From contig CAYUOS010000001.1 of assembly GCA_964446435.1 (NCBI GenBank), positions 6,659 to 70,658 of the forward strand: a stretch of 64,000 nt of DNA, given 5' to 3'. The stretch comes from an uncultured Rikenellaceae bacterium. GTDB taxonomy: Bacteria; Bacteroidota; Bacteroidia; Bacteroidales; VadinHA17. This document shows positions 37,469 through 62,277 of this stretch, in pieces (position 1 is the stretch's first letter; each line of letters begins with the position of its first letter). The notes beneath the pieces are model-generated. The model did no database searches and was not told the origin of the DNA. It was given only the letters and a program-made list of their open reading frames with translations. A program made the translations under genes and the position numbers.

Positions 37469-38998
37469 ATGAAAACCCCCTATGACATATTGTTTAACAA
37501 AAAGCCAAAGACAATGGAGACAGAGATAATGAGCTTCGATCTTCCGGTTGAAAGGTCGTCCATCATCAAGGTCCTCGGTATCGGTGGCGGAGGTAATAAT
37601 GCCGTCAATCATATGTTTGAGCGAGGCATTAAGGATGTGAATTTCGTGATCTGCAATACTGACCAGCAGGCACTGGCCGGTAGTCCTGTTCCGTTGAAGG
37701 TACAGCTTGGGGAGTCACTGACTGAGGGCCGGGGTGCCGGCAGCAAGCCTGACATTGGCAGACAGGCTGCGATCGAAAACCTCGATGATGTGATGAACAC
37801 CCTTTCGGGAAACACCAAGATGGTATTCCTGACAACCGGGCTGGGAGGCGGAACCGGTACCGGAGCAGCACCTGTCATAGCGAAAGCCTGTCGCGAAGCA
37901 GGTTACCTTACAATTGCTGTGGTAACAATACCCTTTAAGTCTGAAGGGAAGGTAAGGATATCTCATGCCATCAAGGGTATTGAGGAGTTAAGGGAAGATG
38001 TTGACTCACTTCTTGTGATCAATAATGAGAAGCTGCGGGACATCTATGGTGACCAGACTGTATCTGTGGCATTTGAAAAGGCCGATGACGTTCTGGCAAC
38101 TGCTGTGAAGGGAATAGCTGAGATTATTACAGTAACCGGTTATATCAACGTTGACTTTGCCGATGTTGAAACGGTTATGAAAGATTCTGGTGTGGCGGTA
38201 ATGGGAATGGGTCGGGCCTCAGGACAGGACAGGGCAAGGGTTGCTATTGAATCGGCACTTAACTCACCCCTGCTCGACTCAAGCGATATAACCGGTGCAA
38301 AGTCTATTCTGATAAATATAATCTCAGGAACCGGTGAATCGGAGATAACCATGGATGAGCTGGGAGAGATAACCGACTACATGTATGCCGTTGCTGCCGA
38401 TGATGCTTTGATAATAAGGGGTTTGTCAAAGGATCCTTCGCTGGGAGATGAGATAAGCGTGATTGTGATTGCCACTGCCTTTGAGTCGAAGAATCCGATT
38501 GACCTGTACAGGCAGCCCGCTGCTGAAAGGCAGACTGTTGTACTCAGCAATGTAAAGTATGCTGATAAACTGAATTACACTGCACCTTCTGAAGATGAGA
38601 GCTTTGCCTCCACCGGCAAGGGTAAGATCGTAACTGACATTGATGGTGACAAGGCACAGGGAAGGCTTAACTTCGGCTTTGAAGACAGGGAAGAGCAATC
38701 ACCTGCCAGGGTTAAGAGGTCAGATTCGCCCGGCGTTCAGGAAGAGGGCAGGAAAAAGCTTGACAAGATAAAGGAGATTCAGTCGATGATGCATCAGGAT
38801 GGGCTTACCAGCAAGACTATGACCGACAACATTGACAGTTTCGAGGATGTTCCGGCCTATGTCAGACGCAACATTCCGCTAACGAAACTCGAAGGTGTCA
38901 GGGGGTCGAAGGTGTCAAAGCTTACCCTGTCGACTGATGAAAATCAGCAACCGGTAATAAGAGAGAATAATGCCTATTTAAACGATAATGTCGATTGA
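37469..38998 (+). CDS. ftsZ: Cell division protein FtsZ (long C-terminal linker form)
   Basis: GIGGGGNNAVNHM and the tubulin signature GLGGGTGTGAAPV. The C-terminal tail is ...NNAYLNDNVD*. Alternative internal starts exist (Met16, Met21). Confidence 0.95.
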   Translation: MKTPYDILFNKKPKTMETEIMSFDLPVERSSIIKVLGIGGGGNNAVNHMFERGIKDVNFVICNTDQQALAGSPVPLKVQLGESLTEGRGAGSKPDIGRQAAIENLDDVMNTLSGNTKMVFLTTGLGGGTGTGAAPVIAKACREAGYLTIAVVTIPFKSEGKVRISHAIKGIEELREDVDSLLVINNEKLRDIYGDQTVSVAFEKADDVLATAVKGIAEIITVTGYINVDFADVETVMKDSGVAVMGMGRASGQDRARVAIESALNSPLLDSSDITGAKSILINIISGTGESEITMDELGEITDYMYAVAADDALIIRGLSKDPSLGDEISVIVIATAFESKNPIDLYRQPAAERQTVVLSNVKYADKLNYTAPSEDESFASTGKGKIVTDIDGDKAQGRLNFGFEDREEQSPARVKRSDSPGVQEEGRKKLDKIKEIQSMMHQDGLTSKTMTDNIDSFEDVPAYVRRNIPLTKLEGVRGSKVSKLTLSTDENQQPVIRENNAYLNDNVD

Positions 38999-39077
38999 CA
39001 TTTTTTTATTTTCTACTGCTCAACTTGGGGGGCGCGGCATTTTGCTGCGCCTCTTTTTTGGTTTATCTTTGCTCTTC

Positions 39078-41000
39078 ATGAAAAGAATAGCCGGGTATAT
39101 TCCGTTGCTGGCACTTGCGACACTTGGTTTTGCCAGGGCAGAAGCCCAGAGCAGTGCAGTGACAATGAGGCAGTATGGCCTTACGAGGGATTTTACCGGC
39201 ACCGTTAATATTGATATTGATACCGCATTTTCGCTAGCTCACAGGGTGCGAAAGGCAGACCGGTACTCGGCATTCAATGCTTATCCCGGCAATTACGGCC
39301 TTCCGCTTTACCAGATAAACTTTTTCGACCGTAACAGAAACCCCGACCAGTTTCTCTATCAGTACTACTACCCGTTTATGTACACTCCCGGGAGGGCGGT
39401 TTTTGCAGACACCCAGGTTCCATTCACCGAGATGGTCTTCACCTACGCCGGTCCGGCCATCAATAAGGCCGAACAGACCTTCAGGGTGAGGCACACCCAT
39501 AACCTTAGCAGGTACCTCAACTTCGGGCTGATTTACGACATTGTCTACAGCCTGGGGCATTATTCTCATCAGAAGGCAGAAGACAAGAACTTCATCCTTC
39601 ACACATCGATGCTGAGGGAAAAGTACAGGTTCTACGCTGCACTTGGCATCAACAACCTCTACTCAAATGAGAATGGAGGTGTCGTCAACCCTGCAACAGT
39701 CGGGCAGTTCGATACGAGGGATGTCCCGACAAGGCTTGGGGGCCTTAACAGGGCTAAGAGCTCGTTGTTGAACCGCAATCTTCTCTTTGTGCAGCAATAC
39801 TCACCGACAGGATTCACTGAGGGTTCTGAAGCAGAGGATGCGAGCGGGCTTCTGGCCCGATTCAGTCATATTCTCACCGTCGAAACCAACAACCGCACCT
39901 ATTTTGATGCCATGCCGCGCTCAGGATTTTATGATACTGTATACGTTGCATCTTTAAGGGTGACGAATGACTCACTGAAGGCATTCATTGTCAGCAATAC
40001 CTTCAGGGCAGATTTCGGGTTCAGGACAAAAGGAGGCTTCGAGCTTCTGGCCGGCGGGGGCATCAGGCATGAGTATCATACCCATATGCAGATGATGCCC
40101 TATCTGTTCCCGAATGACTCAATAGGAGAATCACCGTTTTCATGGAACCATCAGAATGTCGCTGTTGTAGGCAGGATAGAGAACCGTATAGGCAGCAAAT
40201 TCGGCTGGCAGGCTGATGGCACCCTCTTCTTCGCGGGCCATCGTGCCGGTGACGTCGAGGCAAGAGGGGAGGCTCTCAGGGATTTCAACCTGAAAAAGGG
40301 TAAGTCAGAACTGGCAATCAGTGGTGGCTTTTCACGAACTACTCCATCTGTATGGTTCATGCGATGGGGCAGCAATCATTTCAAGTGGAGCACTGTGATG
40401 GACGGAAGGGAGTTTTCGGTAACCACAGGGGCTGCCTACAGGTATCCGGCACGATTATTCGAGGCCGTACTGAATTACTCTATCATCGATAATTACACCT
40501 ATTTCGGAAAGGATGCCCTGCCGGCTTTCCATACCGGAGCTCTCTCAGTTGCTGCCCTTACGGTTGACAAGACATTCAGGGCAGGCGGTTTCAGGTTCGG
40601 CACAAGGCTTTTATTACAGCAAAGCAGCAACGGTGATGTACTCGACCTTCCTCTTGCTACAGCCAGGGGAGCATTATGGTATGACAAGAACATATACTTT
40701 CAAATAACCGGAGGTAATCTTCATATTGAGACCGGTGTTGAGGCGTTCATTCATACCCCCTACAAAGCCATGACGTACATGCCTGCCACTGGCAGATATT
40801 ACAACCAGGAGACTGATGAGGTTGGAGGCTATCCGTTCGTAAATGTTTTTCTTAACGCCAAGATAAAGCGCACCAGGATTCTGCTATGCTTTGACCATAT
40901 AAACCAGGGTTTTACCGGTGGCAACTATTTTCTTTTGCCACGTTATCCGCTGAATGCCAGGGTTTTCAGGTATGGAATTGCCTGGACGTTCTACGATTAG
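39078..41000 (+). CDS. Putative outer-membrane beta-barrel/porin-like protein
   Basis: The signal peptide MKRIAGYIPLLALATLGFARAEAQ begins at the ATG at 39078. The track start at 38988 overlaps ftsZ. The sequence is rich in alternating aromatic/Gly beta-strand patterns and ends ...FRYGIAWTFYD*. Confidence 0.55.
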   Translation: MKRIAGYIPLLALATLGFARAEAQSSAVTMRQYGLTRDFTGTVNIDIDTAFSLAHRVRKADRYSAFNAYPGNYGLPLYQINFFDRNRNPDQFLYQYYYPFMYTPGRAVFADTQVPFTEMVFTYAGPAINKAEQTFRVRHTHNLSRYLNFGLIYDIVYSLGHYSHQKAEDKNFILHTSMLREKYRFYAALGINNLYSNENGGVVNPATVGQFDTRDVPTRLGGLNRAKSSLLNRNLLFVQQYSPTGFTEGSEAEDASGLLARFSHILTVETNNRTYFDAMPRSGFYDTVYVASLRVTNDSLKAFIVSNTFRADFGFRTKGGFELLAGGGIRHEYHTHMQMMPYLFPNDSIGESPFSWNHQNVAVVGRIENRIGSKFGWQADGTLFFAGHRAGDVEARGEALRDFNLKKGKSELAISGGFSRTTPSVWFMRWGSNHFKWSTVMDGREFSVTTGAAYRYPARLFEAVLNYSIIDNYTYFGKDALPAFHTGALSVAALTVDKTFRAGGFRFGTRLLLQQSSNGDVLDLPLATARGALWYDKNIYFQITGGNLHIETGVEAFIHTPYKAMTYMPATGRYYNQETDEVGGYPFVNVFLNAKIKRTRILLCFDHINQGFTGGNYFLLPRYPLNARVFRYGIAWTFYD

Positions 41001-41054: not shown

Positions 41055-42473
41055 TTGAGAAGCAGATTATCAATTTATATAATAATATCATTCATTTTAT
41101 TCTTTTCATGCAGCAGGACCAACACCACCGAACATTCGGTGCAGACTTCCTGGCGTGATCTTGACGGAATAAAGGAACGAGGCAGGCTTGTGGCCGTCAG
41201 TGATTTCAATGCGACAAGCTACTTTATCTACAAGGGTGAGCCTATGGGGTTCAATTTCGAACTTCTGGGCGCTTTCGCCGCTCACCTTGGTGTTGAACTG
41301 GAGATCATCACAGAGAATGATCCGGTTAAAGCCCTTAACATGCTGAACATAGGAGAGGCTGACATACTTGCAATGGGTCTTCCTGTAACAGGTCCGTGGA
41401 GCGATCAGGTAAGGCTGACATCAACCATACACGAGACACGTGAAGTTCTGGTTCAGAGGAAGCCCGAACGCTGGAGAACCATGTCGCCTGAGAGGATAAG
41501 CTCGATGATGATAAGGGATCACCATGACCTTGGAGAGAAGGTTATATATATCCAGCGGGGGTCATGGTATACACGCAGGATCCAGCAATTGCAGAAGGAG
41601 ATAGGCGATACCATATATGCAGTTGAACTGCCATATGAAGTGGAAGGCCTGGTGTCACTTGTTGCGAGGGGTGAGATTGATTACACTCTTTGCGACGAGA
41701 ACTATGCCAGCGTTGCGCGCAGTATATATCCTGATATTGATGTTGATACACATGTAAGCTTTACCCAGAAGAGAGCATGGGCCATGCGCAGGCTTGAGTC
41801 TGATGACCTGGCAGAAGGGTTCAATTCATGGTTTGAGAGTTACCGTCGCACAGGCACTTACGCTCTTCTTTATGCGAAGTATTACCGGAATCCCCGGTCA
41901 GGTGTTATTCTGACGAGCCGTTACTATGGCAACAGCACAGGAAGGATATCTCCGTGGGATGAGCTTATCAGGCAATACAGCGACTCCATATCGTGGGACT
42001 GGAGGCTTTTAGCCTCCCTTATATATCAGGAGTCAAGGTTTGATCCCTACGTGACATCAAGGGCCGGGGCATACGGACTTATGCAGATAATGCCTGCCAC
42101 AGGGGCAAGGTACGGGATAGATGTGAATTCCTCGCCTGAGCATAACATCAGGGCAGGTGTAATGTATATAAGGTCACTCGAAAGGTTGTTCAGTGAGAGA
42201 ATCCCTGACCCTGACGAGAGACTTAAATTCATTCTTGCCTCGTACAATGCCGGACCGGGCCACGTGCTTGATGCAATGCGTCTTGCCGACAGCGAAGGAG
42301 GAGACTCAACCACCTGGCATGGAAGTGTTGAGGAGTATATACAGAAGAAATCAATACCTGATTATTACAATCATCCTGAGGTACAGCATGGCTTTTTCAG
42401 GGGCAGGGAGACTACGAGATTTGTAACTGACATTATGAAGCGGTACGATCATTACCGCAACATCATAAAGTAA
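41055..42473 (+). CDS. Membrane-bound lytic murein transglycosylase (MltF-like: solute-binding domain + SLT domain)
   Basis: Lipobox ILFFSCSR, an SBP-like N-terminal half, and the SLT catalytic block IYQESRFDPYVTSRAGAYGLMQIMPAT...ASYNAGPGHV. The start is apparently a TTG. Confidence 0.85.
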   Translation: MRSRLSIYIIISFILFFSCSRTNTTEHSVQTSWRDLDGIKERGRLVAVSDFNATSYFIYKGEPMGFNFELLGAFAAHLGVELEIITENDPVKALNMLNIGEADILAMGLPVTGPWSDQVRLTSTIHETREVLVQRKPERWRTMSPERISSMMIRDHHDLGEKVIYIQRGSWYTRRIQQLQKEIGDTIYAVELPYEVEGLVSLVARGEIDYTLCDENYASVARSIYPDIDVDTHVSFTQKRAWAMRRLESDDLAEGFNSWFESYRRTGTYALLYAKYYRNPRSGVILTSRYYGNSTGRISPWDELIRQYSDSISWDWRLLASLIYQESRFDPYVTSRAGAYGLMQIMPATGARYGIDVNSSPEHNIRAGVMYIRSLERLFSERIPDPDERLKFILASYNAGPGHVLDAMRLADSEGGDSTTWHGSVEEYIQKKSIPDYYNHPEVQHGFFRGRETTRFVTDIMKRYDHYRNIIK

Positions 42474-43104
42474 AGCTGATACCTTCCCTGTGGAAAAGGG
42501 TTATCAGTTCATGCAGCAGCATAGCTGTGGCACCCCATATTATGTAACCCTCATAATCATAATACTTTACATCAAGCATTTCGTTCCTTACCGGAAATGA
42601 TTTGACCTTAATGATTGAGGGATTGGCGAGTTTCTCAAGGTCGGCTTCAATTATATGCACCACCTCTGCCGGGTCTATGTCGATATTGGGTTTGCTGTTT
42701 TGCCAACCTATCACAGGTGTTACCTCGGTGTCGCTGACCGGTATGAAAAGAGGTGTAAGGCATCCCAGAACAGTGACTTCATCCGGATCGATACCGGTCT
42801 CTTCCGATGCTTCCCTGAGGGCTGTCTCTATCAGGTCAGTGTCTTTCTCCTCTGCCTTTCCACCGGGAAAGCTTATCTGGCCGCTGTGAACCCCTTTATA
42901 TGTGGGTCGCTGTATCAGGATTGTATTTAGAGACCTGTTGTCGGGGTAAATCAGAATCAGTACTGCGGCAAGCCTTGAGTCCTCCCTTTTAATCCTTGGA
43001 AAGTCCTTAATCATCCGGTCTGAGGATGCCATTTCCCACTGCACGCCGGTTCCGGGCAGCCCTTTACTGATGGCATCCCTAATTGTTTCGGGCAGGGGCT
43101 TCAT
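42463..43104 (-). CDS. NUDIX hydrolase (CoA pyrophosphatase-like)
   Basis: Nudix box GGKAEEKDTDLIETALREASEETGI. Confidence 0.85.
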   Translation of the reverse strand: MKPLPETIRDAISKGLPGTGVQWEMASSDRMIKDFPRIKREDSRLAAVLILIYPDNRSLNTILIQRPTYKGVHSGQISFPGGKAEEKDTDLIETALREASEETGIDPDEVTVLGCLTPLFIPVSDTEVTPVIGWQNSKPNIDIDPAEVVHIIEADLEKLANPSIIKVKSFPVRNEMLDVKYYDYEGYIIWGATAMLLHELITLFHREGISFTL

Positions 43105-43126: not shown

Positions 43127-44512
43127 CTATTTGCGGAACTTCCTTACGAAATCTTCTACTTCAGGCACACCTCCCTGGTAAACGAGGTAGCCGTTATAGG
43201 GTTCCTTCTCGGTAATCTCATGACTTACCGGGGTAAGCATTATCCGCTTAATCTCTTCGGGATCGTCGCTCTGGCCCATTGCCCATCCGAGTTTTACCCA
43301 GGCCACCTCAGGAAGCATGTTGCCGAGAGGTATCACTCCCTTTGCCATCATGTCGCGGCCTGTTTCGTAAACGAACATGTGAACATATCCCCATATGGTT
43401 TGCAGGGTCATATAGACGCTGACGCCTTCCTCCTTTGCCCTTTCGAGGGCTGGATAGAGTTCCCTGTTCACATGCCCGAGACCGGTTCCGACGATTACAA
43501 TACCCTTGTAGCCCATGTCAATCAGCGAATGCATGATGTTGACGTCCATGTGCGGATAGTAGTAGAGCATGGTGACTTTCTCGCTGAAGTAGGGGAGTAT
43601 TTTTACCTGCTTATCCTTTCGCCTGTGTTTGTAATCCTTCTTCAGGTGGCTCAGACCGTTTCTTGTAACGGTTGCCACTGGTGTATCTCCTATGGTACGG
43701 AAGGTTGAGCGGTATGAGCTGTGCATCTTCCTCACCCTTGTACCACGGTGCAGGAATCCATACTCGTCTGAAGTGGGACCGAACATACAGACAAGCACCT
43801 CAGCGATGTCTCCATGTCCGGCAGCATACGATGCATGTATCAGGTTCAGGGCAGCATCTGATGACGGCCTGTCTGATGAGCGCTGCGAGCCTACCAGGAT
43901 GATCGGAACGGGTGAGTCCTGTATCATGAACGACAGGGCTGCTGCGGTGTGGTGAAGGGTGTCGGTGCCGTGGCCGATTACAATGCCGTCAACATTATTT
44001 GCAATCTCTTTACCGATAGCCCTGGCAAGGGTCATATACTGGTCGGGCCCCATGTTTTCACTGAAGACGGCGAAGAGTTTCTCTGTCGATATATTGCAGA
44101 CATCAGCCAGTTCGGGAACTGCTCCGTAGAGTTCTCCCGGTGAAAATGCGGGTATTACTGCGCCGGTGCGGTAGTCGAGCCTCGAGGCTATGGTTCCCCC
44201 GGTACCAAAAAGCTTAACGTTGGGCTTGTCTTCAGAGTAGGGGAACTCCTTTTCGGGAATCTTGTAGTTTGCCTTCTTGTAGCCCGTCTCCTTCATCGAA
44301 GTGATTGTAGAGATGTCGATGCCGATATTGTAGCCTGTGTCGATTTTGAGCACGATGTGCATGTCATCGTCATTTTCGGCCCTTGGAAGGACGGTTCCGC
44401 GAAAGGTGCCCCTGGTAGTCTCAATGACGGCCTGGCCCCACACCCTCACGTTGAAATTTCTCAATACATTGAGAGCTGCGCCCTTATAACCCTGAAATAT
44501 CTCTTCTGTCAT
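43127..44512 (-). CDS. gatD: Archaeal-type Glu-tRNA(Gln) amidotransferase subunit D (asparaginase-like glutaminase)
   Basis: 461 aa. A GatD-specific N-terminal domain is followed by asparaginase-family motifs FGTGGTIASRLDYRTGAV, GHGTDTLHHTAAALSF and LVGSQRSSDRPSSDAALNL. It starts 5 nt after the gatE stop. Confidence 0.85.
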   Translation of the reverse strand: MTEEIFQGYKGAALNVLRNFNVRVWGQAVIETTRGTFRGTVLPRAENDDDMHIVLKIDTGYNIGIDISTITSMKETGYKKANYKIPEKEFPYSEDKPNVKLFGTGGTIASRLDYRTGAVIPAFSPGELYGAVPELADVCNISTEKLFAVFSENMGPDQYMTLARAIGKEIANNVDGIVIGHGTDTLHHTAAALSFMIQDSPVPIILVGSQRSSDRPSSDAALNLIHASYAAGHGDIAEVLVCMFGPTSDEYGFLHRGTRVRKMHSSYRSTFRTIGDTPVATVTRNGLSHLKKDYKHRRKDKQVKILPYFSEKVTMLYYYPHMDVNIMHSLIDMGYKGIVIVGTGLGHVNRELYPALERAKEEGVSVYMTLQTIWGYVHMFVYETGRDMMAKGVIPLGNMLPEVAWVKLGWAMGQSDDPEEIKRIMLTPVSHEITEKEPYNGYLVYQGGVPEVEDFVRKFRK

Positions 44513-44517
44513 AGTTA

Positions 44518-46497
44518 CTATCCGTTGGAAATTTTCTCGCTGATTTTGCGGTGGAGCAATGCAAGGTCGGTGTTGCCGAGTGCCTGCTTGTGAACCTGGC
44601 CCATGAGCCAGTCTGCCGCTGCCGTCTCCCTGTCGGAGTGCCTTATCTCCCTGAATTTTTCGTTCAGGAACCCGATAGGAGCCAGCAACTCCTCGAGACT
44701 TTTTTTCTTGTAACCGACAATCGTCAGGACCGATCCGAATTCCATCTCGGGATTGTCGTAGATAACAGGCAGCATCAGTCTTGCTATTGAGTGATGTATC
44801 TTCTTCCCTGAAAGAAATCCAAACATGCCGTATATTTTCCTGTAGGAGAAGTGCTTATTGGGTTCTCTCTTGCCCTCAAGGTTTTTAAGGGTGTGTCCGA
44901 GGAAGCAGCCGATGAGTTTATGAGGGTAGCCGAAATCGTCGGCAATGCTTTCAATCATCGGCAGCAGGTTGCGGCTAAGGAGATATTTCCAGGTATCTTC
45001 CGGTATGCCCCAGCCGGCCATCTGCCGGAATCTTTCAGCTACTTCTGTCGGGAGATCCTCACTCAGTGAATCGATATAATCATTCGCGAGGGGGATTGGA
45101 GGAGAATCGGTATCGGGATACATACGGTCGCGGCCGGGAAGCACCCTTTCGAAGATTGTTGTACCGTCTTCAAATGATTTTCTGGTCTCGTTGGGTACGC
45201 CCTGGAATGCCAGCATAAACCTCTCTTCAACAGTCTCAATTGCGGTTGGTATGTCGTCATCGGGGCCCCACAGTACAATCTGTGCATCGGCGCCGTTTGC
45301 CCCCACGAATTTGCGTATTGTCTTGAAGTCTGTGGTGATACTTTTCGGGTCGATCTCTTCTGAGTGGACCATGTTTGGTTTTTCGATGCAGGCGATCACC
45401 TTCAGCCTGTCTGATATCTCGTCGGCAAATATTTTGCCCGGCTGGGTAAAGTGCGACAGTATACCCTGGCAGTCAGGCAGGTTGATGGCAATCACCCTGT
45501 AGCCCTTGTCGAGAGCCTCCCTTATTTCAGCCGATTGTACCACGGTATCGGCGAACCCGATCTCCTTCCATGAGATTTTCCAGTTGTCGGTATTCGCGAT
45601 CTTCTTCCTTAGCAACGACCGTATGTGAAGCAGTGCATACTGCCTGAATGATTCGTTGTGTGACAGTTCAGGTATCCATTTGTTATGCGCTACTCCCTTG
45701 ATTTCAACCCTGCTGCCACCCTCACAGCTGACATTCACATCCTCCCGTCCGGCCCCGATTCCTGTTCTCACGAGACCTGAGCTGCGGTTGAGAAACCTTA
45801 TATATTCTGCTGCCTCAGCAAGTTCGTCGGGTGTCTCCATATCGGGATATGTGACGGTCTCAATCAGGGGCATGCCCAGACGATCGGTCTTGTAGACACG
45901 CCTGTGTCCCACATCAGATATCTCGCGGCACGAATCCTCTTCAATGCTGAGCTGGATTACCCTGACCTTCTTGTTCTTAAGCTGGAGTTCCCCTTCCACC
46001 CCCAGGATGGCCGTTCTCTGAAAACCTGTCGGGATACTCCCGTCGAGGTACTGCTTGCGGGTAATATGGACTTCTCCAACGATGTTGAGCTTGCAGAGGA
46101 GAGATATCCTGAGTGCTATATCGAGAGCTTCCCTGTCGATTGGAAATGGCGGGGTGTCGTCAACCTCGTAGGTGCAGGCGGTCTCATTGTTTATGCGGTA
46201 GATAATCTCCTTCCGCGTCTTGAATTCCATCAGTGCTGTACCGTCATACACCCCCAGCTCACTAAGAGTTGGTCTCATGTGCCTTATAACCTCGGCATCG
46301 TAGTCGTTGTGGTCATGATATATTCCGGCCGGACAACGGCAGAAAAGCTTGCTTTTGGTATTTAGCTGCTGGTGGACTTCCAGTCCTGACTTGAATCCTA
46401 TTCTTCGGTAATCGGCTAAGGTGGCTTTCTTACGTTCCACATAACCAATGGCCTTCATCGTTTTGGCATAGTTCCTGGCCGGGTTGAATTTCTCCAT
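44518..46497 (-). CDS. gatE: Archaeal-type Glu-tRNA(Gln) amidotransferase subunit E
   Basis: GatB/E cradle motifs GFKSGLEVHQQLNTKSKLFCRCP and ITRKQYLDGSIPTGFQRTAIL. A long inserted domain lies between the cradle and the tail, as in GatE but not GatB. The tail domain is YqeY-like. The ATG at 46497 is preferred over the TTG at 46509. Confidence 0.85.
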   Translation of the reverse strand: MEKFNPARNYAKTMKAIGYVERKKATLADYRRIGFKSGLEVHQQLNTKSKLFCRCPAGIYHDHNDYDAEVIRHMRPTLSELGVYDGTALMEFKTRKEIIYRINNETACTYEVDDTPPFPIDREALDIALRISLLCKLNIVGEVHITRKQYLDGSIPTGFQRTAILGVEGELQLKNKKVRVIQLSIEEDSCREISDVGHRRVYKTDRLGMPLIETVTYPDMETPDELAEAAEYIRFLNRSSGLVRTGIGAGREDVNVSCEGGSRVEIKGVAHNKWIPELSHNESFRQYALLHIRSLLRKKIANTDNWKISWKEIGFADTVVQSAEIREALDKGYRVIAINLPDCQGILSHFTQPGKIFADEISDRLKVIACIEKPNMVHSEEIDPKSITTDFKTIRKFVGANGADAQIVLWGPDDDIPTAIETVEERFMLAFQGVPNETRKSFEDGTTIFERVLPGRDRMYPDTDSPPIPLANDYIDSLSEDLPTEVAERFRQMAGWGIPEDTWKYLLSRNLLPMIESIADDFGYPHKLIGCFLGHTLKNLEGKREPNKHFSYRKIYGMFGFLSGKKIHHSIARLMLPVIYDNPEMEFGSVLTIVGYKKKSLEELLAPIGFLNEKFREIRHSDRETAAADWLMGQVHKQALGNTDLALLHRKISEKISNG

Positions 46498-46693
46498 CTT
46501 TGTTTGCAAAATAGAGCAAGCAATTTAGCGAGTAACTTTGATTATTCAAAGTGTAGATAATCAGAAAGTTCGCAGGCTTTATTGATTACAATCGATTGGT
46601 CTGTTTGGGCAAAACAGGATAAGGATTTGTGGTTTGCGGCTTCAAAAAATAAATCAAAAGCCGTGAAGTAGCTAAAAAATTAGAATGTCAGGG

Positions 46694-47938
46694 TCAGTCG
46701 TATCTTATTGACTTTACCGGTGTGATTCTGCCGATAAGGCGGGCAGGGATAAGCAGCATCAGGATTATTGCGGCCATGGTTCCGGCATTGAGAATGATAA
46801 TGTGAACAGGGTCGAGGTTTATCGGTACGGTACTGAGATAATACGAAGCCGGGTCGAGGCTTATGAACCCTGTTGTCTTCTGCAGCCAGGCGAGGCCGAT
46901 ACCTATGAGGTTACCCCAGAAGAGGCCTTTCCCCGTGAGCCATGCAGCCTGGTAGAGGAAAGCCTTGCTGATCAGATTGTCGCCCGCACCTACTGCCTTG
47001 AGGATTCCTATCATGTTGGTTTTCTCGAGGATCAGAATCAGCAGGCCCGACACCATATTGAAACCGGCCACAATAAGCATCAGTACAATGATTACAATTA
47101 CGTTCAGATCCTGGAAATTGAGCCAGTCGAATATCTGCGGATACCGTAACCTTATGTTTGATACCTTGAGTCTCTCATCATCCTCGGTAATCTGGTAACC
47201 TATTGCATCGCGCACCACCCATGTGAGATACTCGAGGTCACGGAAATTGTCGATCACTATCTCGAAGCCGCTTACCTGGTCGTTTTCCCAACCATTGAGT
47301 CGCCTTATATGCCCTATGTCGCCGAATACATATATCCTGTCAAACTCCTCAAGACTGGTTTCATAGATTCCTGTTATCGTGAAGCGCCTTACCCTGGGCG
47401 GATCCTGCACGAAGTGCATTGCAAATGAGTCACCTGTCTTCAGCTCGAGCAGGTCGCACAGCTTTCTTGAAACCACCACGCTGTTTGTTGTTGCCGAGTC
47501 GTTCACTACGAATACCTCTCCCTCAACGAGGCTCGACGAGAAGAAGCTCCAGTCATAGTCGCTGCCCACTCCCTTCAGTACCACTCCCTGGATGTTTTCA
47601 TTTGCCTGAATGATGCCTGCCTTTGTTGCAAAGACCTGTATATGGCTTATTCCCGGTACCTTTTCCACCTTCCCGATAAACTCCTGGCTCATGCTTACCG
47701 GCGCTGTTTCGTATGAGATGTTCGAATCGAAGTTTATGACCTGGATGTGAGAGCCGAAACCGGCTACCTTGTCGCGAATCTCCTGCTTGAAGCCTGTAAG
47801 TATCGATATTGCAAGTATCATAACCGCCAGACCCAAAGCGATGCCTGTGATGGCTATCACATTGATGGGTCTCGAAAAGGAGGTATCTCCTTTACGATCC
47901 TTAATGAGTCTTTTTGCTATGAAATAGGGTGTATTCAT
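46694..47938 (-). CDS. FtsX/MacB-type ABC transporter permease (LolE-like lipoprotein-release permease)
   Basis: 414 aa with N-terminus FIAKRLIKDRKGDTSFSRPI, a large periplasmic loop and a C-terminal FtsX 3-TM bundle ending ...PVKSIRYD*. Confidence 0.85.
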   Translation of the reverse strand: MNTPYFIAKRLIKDRKGDTSFSRPINVIAITGIALGLAVMILAISILTGFKQEIRDKVAGFGSHIQVINFDSNISYETAPVSMSQEFIGKVEKVPGISHIQVFATKAGIIQANENIQGVVLKGVGSDYDWSFFSSSLVEGEVFVVNDSATTNSVVVSRKLCDLLELKTGDSFAMHFVQDPPRVRRFTITGIYETSLEEFDRIYVFGDIGHIRRLNGWENDQVSGFEIVIDNFRDLEYLTWVVRDAIGYQITEDDERLKVSNIRLRYPQIFDWLNFQDLNVIVIIVLMLIVAGFNMVSGLLILILEKTNMIGILKAVGAGDNLISKAFLYQAAWLTGKGLFWGNLIGIGLAWLQKTTGFISLDPASYYLSTVPINLDPVHIIILNAGTMAAIILMLLIPARLIGRITPVKSIRYD

Positions 47939-59611: not shown

Positions 59612-59619
59612 TAGATTTG
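59612..59619 (+). promoter_or_regulatory. -7 box (TAnnTTTG) for valS
   Basis: TAGATTTG sits 30 nt upstream of the ATG at 59650. Confidence 0.5.
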
Positions 59620-59649
59620 CACTCTGAATTGAGAATCACTGCTATTACT

Positions 59650-62277
59650 ATGAATATTCCCACAAAGTACGAACCGGCAGGAGCCGAGGCAAAATGGTAC
59701 AAATACTGGCTTGAGAATGGTTTTTTCAGAAGTGTTCCCGATGAGCGGGAGCCTTACACTATTGCGATACCCCCACCGAATGTGACGGGCGTGCTGCACA
59801 TGGGCCACATGCTCAACAATACCATTCAGGATGTGCTGGTAAGGCGGGCTCGTATGACCGGGAAAAACGCCTGCTGGGTGCCGGGAACCGACCATGCATC
59901 GATTGCAACAGAGGCGAAAGTGGTAGCCAAGCTGCGGGATGAAGGAATTGACAAGCGTGAAATAGGACGGGAAAAATTCATGGAGCATGCGTGGGAGTGG
60001 ACTCACAAGCATGGCGGAATCATTCTCGAGCAGCTTAAGAGACTTGGTGCGTCATGTGACTGGGAAAGGACCCTCTTTACCATGGATGACGAGCGGTATG
60101 ATTCGGTAATCAGGGTATTTATTGACCTCTACAATAAGGGTTTGATATACAGAGGCGTAAGGATGGTCAACTGGGATCCCCAGGCCAAGACTGCAGTATC
60201 AGACGAGGAGGTGAACTATACTGACGAAAATTCGAAGCTTTATTATGTAAAATACCGGATTGCCGGGACCGATGAGTTCATCTCTGTCGCCACCACAAGG
60301 CCGGAGACCATACTTGGTGACACTGCAGTATGCGCCAATCCCTCCGATGAACGTTACAGACACCTGAAGGGCAGAAAGGTGATAGTTCCGATGGTGAACC
60401 GCGAGGTTCCGTTCATCTTTGATGAGTATGTCGAGCAGGAGTTTGGCACAGGATGCCTGAAGATAACACCGGCACATGACATCAACGACTATGAAATAGG
60501 ACTGAGGCATAACCTTCCTGTCATTGATGTTTTCAACGAAGACGGTACAATGAGCGAACAGGCTCAGCTGTTTGTCGGAAAGGACAGGTTCGAGGCTCGC
60601 GAGCTGGCTTATCGTGAACTTGAAATGAGTGGTTCCCTGGTACGGGTTGAGAATTACAAAAACAAGATAGGTCGTTCTGAGCGTACCAACGCGGTTATAG
60701 AACCGAGACTTTCGGTGCAGTGGTTTCTCAGAATGGAGGAGCTGTCAAAACCGGCGCTCGATGCAGTACTTAACGGCGATGTTACCATTTATCCGAAGAA
60801 GTTTGTAAATGTCTACCGCCACTGGATGGAGAATGTACGTGACTGGTGCATAAGCCGTCAGCTCTGGTGGGGACACAGGATACCGGCATGGTATTATGGA
60901 GATGGCAAATTTGTCGTGGCCGCCGATGCGCAAAGCGCCCTGGAACTTGCAAGGAATGAGAGCGGAGACAATTCACTCACTGAATCATCACTGAAGCAGG
61001 ATGAGGATGTGCTTGACACCTGGTTCTCAAGCTGGCTGTGGCCCCTTACCTGTTTCAATGGTATCAGTGAACCGGGAAACAGGGAGATGAAGTACTATTA
61101 TCCTACCAACGACCTTATAACTGCACCCGAGATACTCTTCTTCTGGGTTGCAAGAATGATAATTGCCGGATATGAGTATACCGGCGAGAAGCCCTTCAGC
61201 AACGTCTATCTTCACGGGCTGGTCAGGGACAAGATGCGTCGCAAGATGTCAAAATCGCTTGGCAATTCCCCTGAGCCGCTGAGACTTATTGATACTTATG
61301 GTGCTGATGGTGTAAGGGTAGGGATGCTTCTCTGCTCTCCCGCAGGTAATGACCTGCTTTATGATGATTCGCTTCCCGAGCAGGGCAGGAATTTCTGCAA
61401 CAAGATATGGAATGCCTTCAGGCTTGTTAAGGGATGGGAGCGTGACGAAACACTTGCACAGCCTGAATGGTCGGCAGAAGCTATTGGCTGGATGAGGAAT
61501 GTTACCGATGCAGCCCTTGAGGAACTTGATCAGCACTTCGGTAAATTCAGGATATCGGCAGCGCTGATGACCTGTTACAGGCTTTTCTGGGATCAGTTCT
61601 CATCATGGTATCTTGAGATAGTGAAGCCTTTGTCAGGCAAGAAGATTGACGCAACAACCCATGACGCAACGCTGGAGATATTCGACAGGCTGCTGCGGAT
61701 GATGCATCCTTTTGTACCATTTCTTACAGAGGAGATATGGCAGCTGCTTGATGAAAGAAGACCCGGCGAAAGCATCATGATATCGACAATGCCCGTTGCA
61801 GGCAGGGTTAACCGGAAGATGCTGGCCGATTTTGAGATGGCCTGCCAGATAGTCAGTTCGGTGAGGATGGTAAGGAAGGAGAAGAACATACCCAACCGCG
61901 AGACTGCAGACCTTTATGTGGTTTCTTCTGCCGATGACTTTAAACGGTATTTCCCGACGGTTGTGAGTCGTCTTTGCAACATCGCGACCATTCATTACAC
62001 AGACTCGAAGATTGCGGGGGCGGCTTCATTCATGGCCGGTACACTCGAATTCTTTGTCCCTCTGAAGGTAGCCATCGATGTTGAAGCTGAAAGGGATAGA
62101 CTTGCGAAGGAGATAGCTTATTATCAGGGCTTCCTTGATTCGGTCAACGGTAAACTGTCAAACAGCAACTTTGTTTCCAATGCCCCCGAAAAGGTGGTTG
62201 AAACCGAGAAGAAGAAGCGTGCCGACTCAGAGGCGAAGCTTGCAGCCCTGAAGAATCAGCTTGACGAGCTTGGCTGA
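59650..62277 (+). CDS. valS: Valine--tRNA ligase
   Basis: The HIGH-type motif PPPNVTGVLHMGHML, the KMSKS motif (RKMSKSLGN) and a C-terminal coiled coil. The ATG at 59650 (MNIPTKYEP...) is preferred over the track start at 59617. Confidence 0.95.
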   Translation: MNIPTKYEPAGAEAKWYKYWLENGFFRSVPDEREPYTIAIPPPNVTGVLHMGHMLNNTIQDVLVRRARMTGKNACWVPGTDHASIATEAKVVAKLRDEGIDKREIGREKFMEHAWEWTHKHGGIILEQLKRLGASCDWERTLFTMDDERYDSVIRVFIDLYNKGLIYRGVRMVNWDPQAKTAVSDEEVNYTDENSKLYYVKYRIAGTDEFISVATTRPETILGDTAVCANPSDERYRHLKGRKVIVPMVNREVPFIFDEYVEQEFGTGCLKITPAHDINDYEIGLRHNLPVIDVFNEDGTMSEQAQLFVGKDRFEARELAYRELEMSGSLVRVENYKNKIGRSERTNAVIEPRLSVQWFLRMEELSKPALDAVLNGDVTIYPKKFVNVYRHWMENVRDWCISRQLWWGHRIPAWYYGDGKFVVAADAQSALELARNESGDNSLTESSLKQDEDVLDTWFSSWLWPLTCFNGISEPGNREMKYYYPTNDLITAPEILFFWVARMIIAGYEYTGEKPFSNVYLHGLVRDKMRRKMSKSLGNSPEPLRLIDTYGADGVRVGMLLCSPAGNDLLYDDSLPEQGRNFCNKIWNAFRLVKGWERDETLAQPEWSAEAIGWMRNVTDAALEELDQHFGKFRISAALMTCYRLFWDQFSSWYLEIVKPLSGKKIDATTHDATLEIFDRLLRMMHPFVPFLTEEIWQLLDERRPGESIMISTMPVAGRVNRKMLADFEMACQIVSSVRMVRKEKNIPNRETADLYVVSSADDFKRYFPTVVSRLCNIATIHYTDSKIAGAASFMAGTLEFFVPLKVAIDVEAERDRLAKEIAYYQGFLDSVNGKLSNSNFVSNAPEKVVETEKKKRADSEAKLAALKNQLDELG

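Follow-up and report, generated by a model that had tools for sequence, protein, structure and literature searches.

The gatE–gatD locus

Two adjacent genes, gatE and gatD, lie on the minus strand of a 64,000-nucleotide (nt) stretch of contig CAYUOS010000001.1 from an uncultured Rikenellaceae bacterium (assembly GCA_964446435.1); this whole stretch is called the window below. As far as sequence and predicted structure go, their products are confirmed as a true GatD and a true GatE, the two subunits of the tRNA-dependent amidotransferase GatDE, and not as an asparaginase plus GatB. The gatE stop codon ends at 44518 and the gatD ATG lies at 44512, which leaves a spacer of 5 nt, and the coordinates of the open reading frames (ORFs) thus bear out the two closely spaced minus-strand frames that had been noted in a first, sequence-only reading of this DNA. 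The peptide motifs quoted in that reading (GTGGTIASRLDYRTGAV, HGTDTLHHTAAALSF, QRSSDRPSSDAALNL, GLEVHQQLNTKSKLFCRCP, and RKQYLDGSIPTGFQRTAIL) are all found in the translations. The full-length upstream ORF spans 663 amino acids (aa; 44518..46509, minus) and was cut to 659 aa from the ATG at 46497. A protein at NCBI that is 100% identical to the window GatE also has 659 aa, and homologues align from the same start. The coordinates of the pair, its domains, and its surroundings are collected in Table 1.

Table 1. Coordinates of the gatE–gatD pair, of the elements within it, and of its flanks in the window
Feature	Coordinates	Strand	Details
gatE coding sequence	44518..46497	minus	659 aa from ATG at 46497; stop codon 44518-44520
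gatD coding sequence	43127..44512	minus	461 aa; GatD equivalogs and Pfam domains
gatE/gatD spacer	44513..44517	minus	5 nt between gatE stop codon and gatD ATG
GatD C-terminal extension, bacterial clade only	43130..43204	minus	aa 437-461, EPYNGYLVYQGGVPEVEDFVRKFRK, about 25 residues
GatE cradle (kinase/transamidase), N-terminal part	45598..46416	minus	aa 28-300; residue mapping onto M. thermautotrophicus GatE
GatE active-site-adjacent motif	46009-46056	minus	aa 148-163, RKQYLDGSIPTGFQRT
GatE-specific insertion domain	45223..45597	minus	aa 301-425; interrupts GatB_N match
GatE helical and tail region (tRNA D-loop side)	44521..45057	minus	aa 481-659; strongly diverged
Promoter-like element	46520..46550	minus	TTTG (46550-46547), 19 nt, TAAATTGC (46527-46520); ends 22 nt before ATG
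NUDIX (CoA-pyrophosphatase-like) gene, context only	42463..43104	minus	22 nt downstream of gatD
LolC/E-type ABC permease gene, context only	46694..47938	minus	196 nt upstream of gatE

Family, domains, and catalytic motifs of GatD

The assignment of the 461-aa product to GatD instead of a plain asparaginase, which had been made from the letters alone, is upheld by model scores, the N-terminal domain, and structure matches. On NCBIfam, the protein reaches 491.5 bits with NF003217 (cut-off 310) and 487.8 bits with TIGR02153 (cut-off 324). Its scores with the asparaginase models (type I, 367 bits; type II, 155 bits) are both below those of the GatD equivalogs, and the subfamily cut-off of the type I model TIGR00519 is passed as well (367 vs 260.5). 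Three Pfam domains follow each other along the chain, namely PF18195 (GatD_N, aa 32-70), PF00710 (Asparaginase, aa 98-288), and PF17763 (Asparaginase_C, aa 312-425). The solved archaeal GatD chains 2d6f_A and 1zq1_A are matched nearly over the full length with 381 and 379 bits (E-values of 6e-113 and 2.9e-112, respectively), the alignment with 2d6f_A beginning at residue 8, while any asparaginase structure stays at or below 132 bits.

The catalytic motifs TGGT (aa 104-107, including T107), HGTDT (aa 181-185), and VRKMH (aa 260-264) stand in column-for-column register with both archaeal chains. In M. thermautotrophicus GatD, the glutaminase site consists of T101, T177, D178, and K254.

The GatD of every bacterial lineage examined (the window and the loci L047, L018, L081, L082, and L083) carries a C-terminal extension, the pattern of which (EPYNGYL.YQGG.PEVE.F...) is conserved in Bacteroidales, Ancylomarina, Calditrichia, Aminicenantales, and a 5.98-Mb genome. 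The extension is absent in M. thermautotrophicus and partially matched in P. abyssi; a contact to the other subunit or to a partner is possible. Over the whole protein, GatD is 63-68% identical to its counterparts in other bacterial phyla and 45-46% identical to archaeal GatD.

Family, active site, and fold of GatE

GatE reaches 421.5 bits with TIGR00134 (cut-off 319.55) and 470.8 bits with NF003107, the cut-off of which (456) is passed by a narrow margin. The best GatB model yields 126.4 bits (its cut-off is 338), and the GatB cut-offs all lie at or above 314.8. The match to Pfam GatB_N, a model of 277 positions, is stretched over aa 37-475 in split form, and it is therefore interrupted by an insertion. 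With the inserted domain included, GatE matches the solved archaeal chains 2d6f_C and 1zq1_C at E-values of 3.9e-91 and 8.4e-80.

The cradle retains the complete active site. The metal site residues H42, E186, and E213 correspond to H15, E157, and E184 of M. thermautotrophicus GatE, and E40, Q44, K148, D152, Q160, R161, E187, D188, and D205 are kept in addition; these active-site positions are invariant in an alignment of 45 bacterial and archaeal sequences. Cradle identity amounts to 65-68% with other bacterial phyla and to 41-49% with archaea. With all catalytic residues intact in both subunits, GatD and GatE look catalytically competent.

The insertion domain aligns with few gaps to the insertions of 2d6f_C and 1zq1_C and is modelled with high confidence, and it is 27-35% identical to that of other bacterial phyla. 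A likeness to aspartyl-tRNA synthetase (AspRS) is no more than hinted at by non-significant matches (E 0.09-0.8) and by PF02938, which is precomputed in some homologues. The tail that follows is of the right length, as the NCBIfam match runs from aa 28 to 657 over model positions 4-625 of 630; it could be profile-aligned to the PDB chains and is predicted to be all-helical at a high predicted local distance difference test (pLDDT) score. Of the architecture first proposed for the ~660-aa product, the cradle and the insertion domain are found and a tail is present, but the Pfam domain GatB_Yqey is not detected there.

An AlphaFold2 model of GatE was built from the 45-sequence alignment and has a mean pLDDT of 91.3 and a predicted template modelling (TM) score of 0.88. 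Its best PDB matches are 1zq1_C (P. abyssi) and 2d6f_D (M. thermautotrophicus), with E-values of about 1e-45 and target-normalised TM-scores of 0.78-0.83. The model superposes on GatE chains over 514-540 alignment columns, and GatB chains form a clear second tier. Neither of the two proteins scores better with asparaginase or GatB families, the GatE insertion is in place, and the composition does not break at the pair.

Distribution, gene order, and conservation

Close relatives of the window GatE occur in at least 468 species-representative genomes, almost all of them environmental Bacteroidales. The scan covered one genome per species with subgroup-specific peptide patterns, and since these patterns are specific to a Bacteroidales subgroup, 468 is a lower bound. 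The best 80 of the 468 loci were compared in detail. Their GatE proteins are 64-91% identical to that of the window and come from genomes labelled Bacteroidales, Marinilabiliaceae, Marinifilaceae, Salinivirgaceae, “Rikenellaceae,” and others, together with a few Neomarinimicrobiota and Lentisphaeria. Among the carriers are the cultured Ancylomarina salipaludis SHSM-M15, a closed chromosome of 4.27 Mb, and contigs of more than 1 Mb; a contig of 5.98 Mb has the pair as well. The accessions are NZ_SAXA01 for the isolate, OY764960.1 for the closed chromosome, and ERZ25042269 ctg13255c for the 5.98-Mb contig, and two further long contigs with the pair are CAWDHN010000010.1 and CALOFK010000001.1.

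At least 8000 matching clusters at 90% identity were returned by the protein search; the best 120 of these are all at least 68% identical to the query, and many are already named “GatE [Bacteroidales bacterium].” The exhaustive GatE search covered 1.84 billion cluster representatives. GatE relatives fall into three tiers, which are the Bacteroidales cluster, about 30 clusters at 41-53% identity (400-610 bits), and the bulk at 31-38%. M. thermautotrophicus GatE is found at the level of the lowest tier (309 bits in the PDB search). The middle tier is bacterial, and those of its members that have names stem from metagenome-assembled genomes (MAGs) with the labels Calditrichia, KSB1, Aminicenantes/Aminicenantales, Krumholzibacteria, Latescibacteria, Candidatus Desulfaltia, and “Deltaproteobacteria.” In these other phyla, the contigs with gatE also carry sigma-70, SecA, DnaA, RecO, FtsEX, RodZ, L28, and PNPase, and gatE is again followed by gatD, with the two genes abutting or overlapping.

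In the loci compared in detail, gatD directly follows gatE in 79 of 80 cases, and a lolE-like gene lies upstream in 61 of 80. Downstream of the pair, MltF is found in 43/80 loci and NUDIX in only 27/80, which places NUDIX outside the conserved unit. Ancylomarina, the contigs labelled “Neomarinimicrobiota,” and the other phyla have unrelated neighbours; genes for a histidine kinase, resistance–nodulation–division efflux pumps, acyl-CoA dehydratase subunits, SecA, DnaA, and RecO flank the pair elsewhere. The functional unit is therefore the gatE–gatD pair alone. An operon of lolE, gatE, gatD, and nudix, as had been proposed at first, is a matter of position only, with gatE–gatD as the one invariant unit.

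Nine loci within the Bacteroidales subgroup of GatE/GatD carry other labels, namely Candidatus Neomarinimicrobiota (L018, L024, L025, L029, L031, L032, L038, and L048) and Lentisphaeria (L026). They are 67-69% (GatE) and 84-87% (GatD) identical to the window and are found without the lolE/MltF synteny. They could stem from a recent transfer from one bacterium to another, or the contigs could be Bacteroidales ones that were mislabelled or mis-binned.

The pair is better conserved than its surroundings. Across the loci, identities are 72-95% for GatD and 64-91% for GatE, while MltF is at about 50%. Measured against the loci L001 and L002, nonsynonymous divergence (dN) amounts to 0.03-0.04 in GatD and 0.05-0.07 in GatE, whereas the neighbours range over 0.06-0.15; against the more distant L004, it is 0.10 in GatD and 0.42 in MltF. 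The ratio of dN to synonymous divergence (dS) is about 0.014-0.033 for the pair, a range that is approximate because dS is saturated. By these estimates, gatDE is among the most constrained genes of its neighbourhood and under very strong purifying selection.

Between lolE and gatE, a short element is conserved as well (Table 1). Its TTTGA and TAAnTT blocks (TAAnTT(T/G)) are invariant in eight lineages, whereas the rest of the intergenic region is about 61% identical. The blocks match the published promoter consensus of Bacteroides, which has TTTG at -33 and TAnnTTTG at -7. The element looks like a Bacteroidetes sigma-A promoter, which would give a 5′ leader of about 13-16 nt. Its conservation argues that gatE–gatD have a putative promoter of native type that is independent of lolE, and given this element, translation is unlikely to start at the upstream TTG (46509). 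A scan for sigma-70 promoters and terminators returned no more sites than in shuffled sequence, the sigma-70 model being unsuited to Bacteroidetes.

Phylogeny of GatE

Neighbour-joining trees of GatE were computed from 617-620 well-occupied columns with 150-200 bootstraps. All bacterial GatE sequences form one clade with 100% bootstrap, and the Bacteroidales group is monophyletic with 100% in the GatB-rooted analysis. In 89.5% of the replicates, a split sets the bacteria together with ten Asgard-like sequences apart from the remaining archaea. The named members of this neighbouring group are Heimdallarchaeota, Hodarchaeales, Thorarchaeota, and Odinarchaeota, and a profile built from the group retrieves archaea only, with Asgard lineages first. 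When 24 labelled Asgard and TACK sequences are added, the nearest neighbour of the bacteria is Heimdall-type GatE in 69% and the unnamed neighbours in 30%; next to join the Heimdall-type sequences are other Asgard sequences. One Asgard GatE (P0449, Promethearchaeota archaeon CR_4) bears the public name “aspartyl-tRNA(Asn) amidotransferase, B subunit,” a misannotation between GatB and GatE.

A motif next to the active site (Table 1) links the same groups. Of 48 bacterial sequences, 46 have RKQYLDGSIP.GFQRT; it also occurs in Heimdall-type GatE and nowhere else among the sampled sequences. At the same site, Loki-, Thor-, and Hel-type sequences have RKNY(V/L)DGSVP, and TACK, Euryarchaeota, and DPANN have RK.VIDGSN. 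The Tyr and the Pro of the motif are common to GatB (RK.YFYPDLPKGYQIS), and since GatB has the same two residues, the motif state could be ancestral. RKQYLDGSIP.GFQRT could thus be an ancestral state kept in common, or it could mark the source of the transfer.

According to the literature, GatDE is universal in archaea. In bacteria it is patchy, being concentrated in the Fibrobacteres–Chlorobi–Bacteroidetes (FCB) group with a few MAGs labelled Acidobacteriota or Desulfobacterota, and a single ancient transfer from archaea to bacteria is therefore the most economical reading. Most likely, this was one ancient transfer from a Heimdall-like Asgard archaeon into bacteria, and vertical descent with some spread between bacteria would be the most economical account of what came after. 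Within environmental Bacteroidales, the pair is, on sequence evidence, inherited vertically with conserved gene order.

A transfer into this particular genome or lineage, which the sequence-only reading had envisaged, is not supported. The bacterial clade has 100% bootstrap, at least 468 Bacteroidales-type genomes and further phyla carry the pair, and the synteny is conserved. Because the pair is monophyletic, widespread, and syntenic, any inter-domain event must have been ancient and single and must have taken place long before this organism. The archaeal origin as such is plausible in this deep sense, as bacterial GatE groups with Asgard GatE, but not as a recent or private import.

Proposed function and tRNA recognition

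Taken together, the pair probably represents a functional GatDE-type tRNA-dependent amidotransferase of a monophyletic, multi-phylum bacterial lineage with an ancient Heimdall-like origin, and it most likely works on Glu-tRNA(Gln). In the proposed reaction, GatD, a glutaminase that has the asparaginase fold and one extra domain at its N-terminus, would free ammonia from glutamine. GatE, a GatB paralogue with an inserted domain, would bind the acceptor end of Glu-tRNA(Gln), phosphorylate the glutamyl side chain with ATP, and subsequently amidate it, yielding Gln-tRNA(Gln). The mischarged substrate would have to be supplied by a glutamyl-tRNA synthetase (GluRS) of the non-discriminating type. 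Both subunits would be made from a single gatE–gatD transcript that starts at the Bacteroidetes-type promoter just upstream of gatE. After the ancient transfer from a Heimdall-like Asgard archaeon, the genes would have been inherited vertically in environmental Bacteroidales, and the tRNA-contacting elements would have been remodelled for bacterial tRNA(Gln).

In the literature, reading of the first base pair is assigned to the element between α2 and β11 of the cradle; this element takes the form of a 3-10 turn in bacterial GatB, and GatE has a short basic loop in its place. Binding of the D-loop and discrimination between Gln and Asn are assigned to the tail, with the motif GXXAXGX in GatE and KXGKXK in GatB. 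The bacterial first-base-pair loop is of the GatE type, without a two-residue insertion relative to archaeal GatE; GatB has one. It reads VRTGI-GAAR in bacteria, in one comparison VRTGI-GAGR, vs VKRGL-GTIR in archaea, by which one basic residue is lost.

Several findings weigh against the proposed reading. In the tail, GXXAXGX is missing, and the window has ETAAADWLMG vs GMGAMGPLMG in M. thermautotrophicus and P. abyssi. At the D-loop pocket, Bacteroidales have LGNTDL in place of the widely conserved “...RG+xDG” (RG to LGN), and the tail, in which GatB_Yqey goes undetected, is 14-23% identical outside Bacteroidales. No biochemical or expression data on any bacterial GatDE were found in the literature searched. 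Probing with E. coli glutaminyl-tRNA synthetase (GlnRS; verified against PDB) and with the GatE cradle revealed no homologue of GlnRS/GluRS or of GatB, either in the window or in the 80 Bacteroidales-group loci, which span about 1.3 Mb, and no tRNA(Gln) gene was found in the window or in any of 85 loci. A survey of 14 Bacteroidetes from 2014 lists GlnRS without GatCAB in 12, both in 1, and GatCAB only in 1. If GlnRS and a discriminating GluRS are present in these genomes, GatDE would be left without its canonical substrate.

The divergence of the tRNA-contacting parts can be read in more than one way. Identity of the helical and tail region is 14-20% to other bacterial phyla and 38-55% within Bacteroidales. 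At the GXXAXGX site, other bacterial phyla have basic residues, and several archaeal GatE (Thermoprotei, Parvarchaeota, and Heimdall) likewise deviate from the motif; as it varies among true archaeal GatE, its loss is not diagnostic. Bacterial tRNA(Gln) has a U1-A72 pair and archaeal tRNA(Gln) has A1-U72 according to the literature. Changed tRNA-contacting elements would be expected if the enzyme serves bacterial tRNA(Gln) with U1-A72, and they are equally compatible with an altered substrate.

Such a substrate could be Asp-tRNA(Asn), both mischarged tRNAs, which are the substrates of bacterial GatCAB, or an aminoacyl-tRNA or carboxylate outside translation. The altered parts are precisely those that are tied to tRNA discrimination (tail motif, D-loop pocket, and first-base-pair loop), the basic tail residues in other bacterial phyla recall GatB's Lys-rich motif, and the low identity of the tail outside Bacteroidales stands next to a cradle at 65-68%. 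In addition, the surveyed Bacteroidetes are mostly GlnRS users, in which a Glu-specific amidotransferase would find no substrate. A changed substrate is nevertheless unlikely, as every catalytic residue for the canonical chemistry is kept, the tail motifs vary among true archaeal GatE as well, archaeal GatDE is strictly specific for Glu-tRNA(Gln) in all published work, and no linked gene points to another pathway.

GatDE in Bacteroidota could replace GlnRS, provide a parallel route, or do something else. A more far-reaching proposal is that bacterial GatDE constitutes an unrecognised third bacterial route to Gln-tRNA(Gln), which would be the only or main route in many environmental Bacteroidales and other FCB phyla, would replace GlnRS and/or GatCAB, and would have had its tRNA recognition re-tuned to bacterial tRNA(Gln), away from the A1-U72 pair and the D-loop of archaea. 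This proposal is conceivable, though rather doubtful. If true, it would overturn the textbook view of GatDE as archaea-only and provide a natural experiment in the inter-domain move of a tRNA-dependent enzyme.

Origin of the bacterial pair

On the same opposing side as the findings listed above stands the rooting with GatB (segments from PDB alignments), which gave 9-24% bootstrap at every placement. Since the trees are neighbour-joining trees only and the GatB root stays this weak, the direction and age of the transfer are inferred. The bacterial clade might then be non-archaeal, either by pre-LUCA (last universal common ancestor) or early bacterial descent or because Heimdall-type archaea acquired GatDE from bacteria. 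In the GatB-rooted analysis, bacteria are sister to all archaea in 14%, and no alternative exceeds 25%; the Tyr and Pro of the bacterial and Asgard DGS motif resemble GatB and could be ancestral, and a published proposal places GatDE already in LUCA. The patchy, FCB-concentrated distribution in bacteria vs the universal presence in archaea speaks against it, however, as do the unrooted trees, which attach the bacteria to one Asgard subgroup and not to the archaeal stem, and the Heimdall-type sequences, which cluster next with other Asgard. A non-archaeal origin is accordingly regarded as quite unlikely, and the ancient Heimdall-like source as the preferred one.

The composition of the pair holds the last adverse point. 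The tetranucleotide profile of 43127-46509 correlates with that of the window at 0.777, which is the 3rd percentile (mean 0.858) and above the minimum; this low value may reflect unusual amino-acid constraint and not foreign origin. The GC content of the two genes is 0.514 and 0.507 (mean of 42 window genes, 0.491), GC at third codon positions (GC3) is 0.615 and 0.613 (window-gene mean 0.556, about 1.8 standard deviations below the pair), and their synonymous codon usage is correlated with that of the remaining window at 0.80 and 0.82 (gene mean 0.773). GC, GC3, and codon usage are all within the spread of the 42 window genes, in line with the initial impression by eye that neither codon nor GC character changes across the pair.

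A recent transfer from an archaeon into Bacteroidota that has since been ameliorated could be called upon in view of the low tetranucleotide profile, the raised GC3, and the universal presence of GatDE in archaea, of which it is regarded as a signature. The nearest sequences, however, all come from bacteria, and the best archaeal GatE is only 31-38% identical to that of the window, compared with 64-91% within Bacteroidales and about 40-53% in other bacterial phyla, and bacterial GatE forms its own clade at 100% bootstrap. The synteny is kept across genomes with flanking genes at about 50% identity, the promoter-like element is conserved and of native type, and codon usage correlates at 0.80-0.82 vs a mean of 0.77. 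Recent transfer is highly improbable on these grounds and was rejected based on junction recurrence, composition, and phylogeny.

Even less credible is a chimera, formed in assembly or binning, of archaeal DNA and a Bacteroidales contig. The source is a metagenome-assembled genome, and the tetranucleotide correlation of the gatDE segment at the 3rd percentile would fit a chimera. The lolE–gatE–gatD–NUDIX–MltF junctions nevertheless recur in independent assemblies of different studies (L001, L002, and dozens more), and the pair is also found in the closed 4.27-Mb chromosome, the 5.98-Mb contig, and the genome of a cultured isolate. GC, GC3, and codon usage are within the window range, and no archaeal sequence comes close to either protein. 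The identical junctions in independent assemblies, together with composition and phylogeny, led to the rejection of this explanation.

A search for mobile elements found no phage homologue, and its only plasmid match is a haloarchaeal megaplasmid. This is CP031304.1 (Natrinema thermotolerans plasmid, 987 kb), where a GatE homologue of 37.8% identity lies at 706602-707959, with no PLSDB feature under the match. The megaplasmid is probably a chromid with a normal archaeal gatE.

Comparison with known amidotransferases and significance

The closest known system is archaeal GatDE (2D6F from M. thermautotrophicus and 1ZQ1 from P. abyssi), with which the window pair shares the two-subunit architecture. 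GatD combines the N-domain with an asparaginase fold and has the same Thr / Thr-Asp / Lys catalytic set, and GatE consists of a cradle with a His/Glu/Glu metal site, an inserted domain, and helical and tail regions. Both proteins pass the curated “arch” equivalog models of GatD and GatE. They differ in their bacterial host, in forming a separate clade, and in an identity of 31-38% (GatE) and 45-46% (GatD). Unlike the archaeal system, bacterial GatD has the C-terminal extension of 25 residues, gatE is always directly followed by gatD, and the presumed substrate tRNA would have U1-A72 and not A1-U72 (literature). The nearest archaeal relative, Heimdall-type Asgard GatE, resembles the window protein in identity (38%, 409 bits), in the trees, and in the exact motif RKQYLDGSIP.GFQRT. 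In contrast to it, Heimdall-type GatE has the archaeal version of the loop (VKRGI-GTIRQDLN), a Gly-containing tail motif, and archaeal hosts.

GatB of GatCAB has a paralogous cradle and tail and likewise performs the ATP-dependent amidation of a mischarged tRNA with channelled ammonia. Unlike GatB, the window GatE has the inserted domain and lacks both the 3-10 turn insertion and the Lys-rich KXGKXK. Its glutaminase partner is the asparaginase-type GatD in place of an amidase-type GatA, and there is no GatC. With type I L-asparaginase, GatD shares complete asparaginase N and C domains and the catalytic motifs; it differs by the extra N-terminal domain PF18195, by higher GatD equivalog scores, and by being always coupled to gatE.

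Papers of 2009, 2021, and 2022 describe GatDE as exclusive to archaea. The pair is found here on bacterial contigs, in at least 468 bacterial species representatives, in an isolate, and in a closed chromosome. As archaea-only is a statement on distribution and not a molecular criterion, membership in the GatDE family is unaffected. In the literature searched, outside of which most subscription journals lie, no report of bacterial GatDE was found. The caveat raised at the outset, that the pair might prove ubiquitous and already described across Bacteroidota, thus applies in part: the genes are widespread and annotated by PGAP and IMG, but no describing paper was found in that literature. Apparently, they form a correctly annotated yet undiscussed bacterial lineage of an “archaeal” enzyme, in which the tRNA-recognition parts are remodelled.

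GatDE is a classic archaea-only marker, a premise of models for the entry of glutamine into the genetic code. One idea in the literature holds that GatDE co-evolved with archaeal tRNA(Gln) and so blocked the acquisition of GlnRS. A large, old, and conserved bacterial clade indicates that GatDE is able to function beyond archaea, and it raises the questions by what means the enzyme recognises bacterial tRNA(Gln) and which role it has in a phylum where the members studied use GlnRS. The Heimdall link would add a dated-looking transfer of a core translation component from archaea to bacteria. What may surprise specialists is the scale and age of the bacterial clade, while the surprise is limited by automatic annotation that already names the genes correctly and by a chemistry that is probably conventional. 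With one carrier, Ancylomarina salipaludis, in culture and with closed genomes available, the question is directly testable.

Neighbouring genes and further observations

Family models of window proteins identify bacterial flanks on the contig, including the LolCE-type permease, the NUDIX/CoA-pyrophosphatase-like protein, SusC/RagA, FtsA, FtsZ, a penicillin-binding protein, and valyl-tRNA synthetase, and the bacterial character that had been ascribed to the neighbourhood is borne out by these matches. Of the 14 window proteins scanned, the valyl-tRNA synthetase gene valS (59617-62277, +) is the sole other one related to aminoacyl-tRNA. No tRNA gene is found in the 64-kb window, and no Rfam RNA family scores above threshold in it. 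At 38988-41000 (+), an ORF of 670 aa with a signal-peptide-like N-terminus has no match at E <= 1e-10 in NCBIfam, the only collection used for it. Its homologue adjoins MltF in 39 of 80 related loci at 34-81% identity, which marks it as a conserved Bacteroidales protein.

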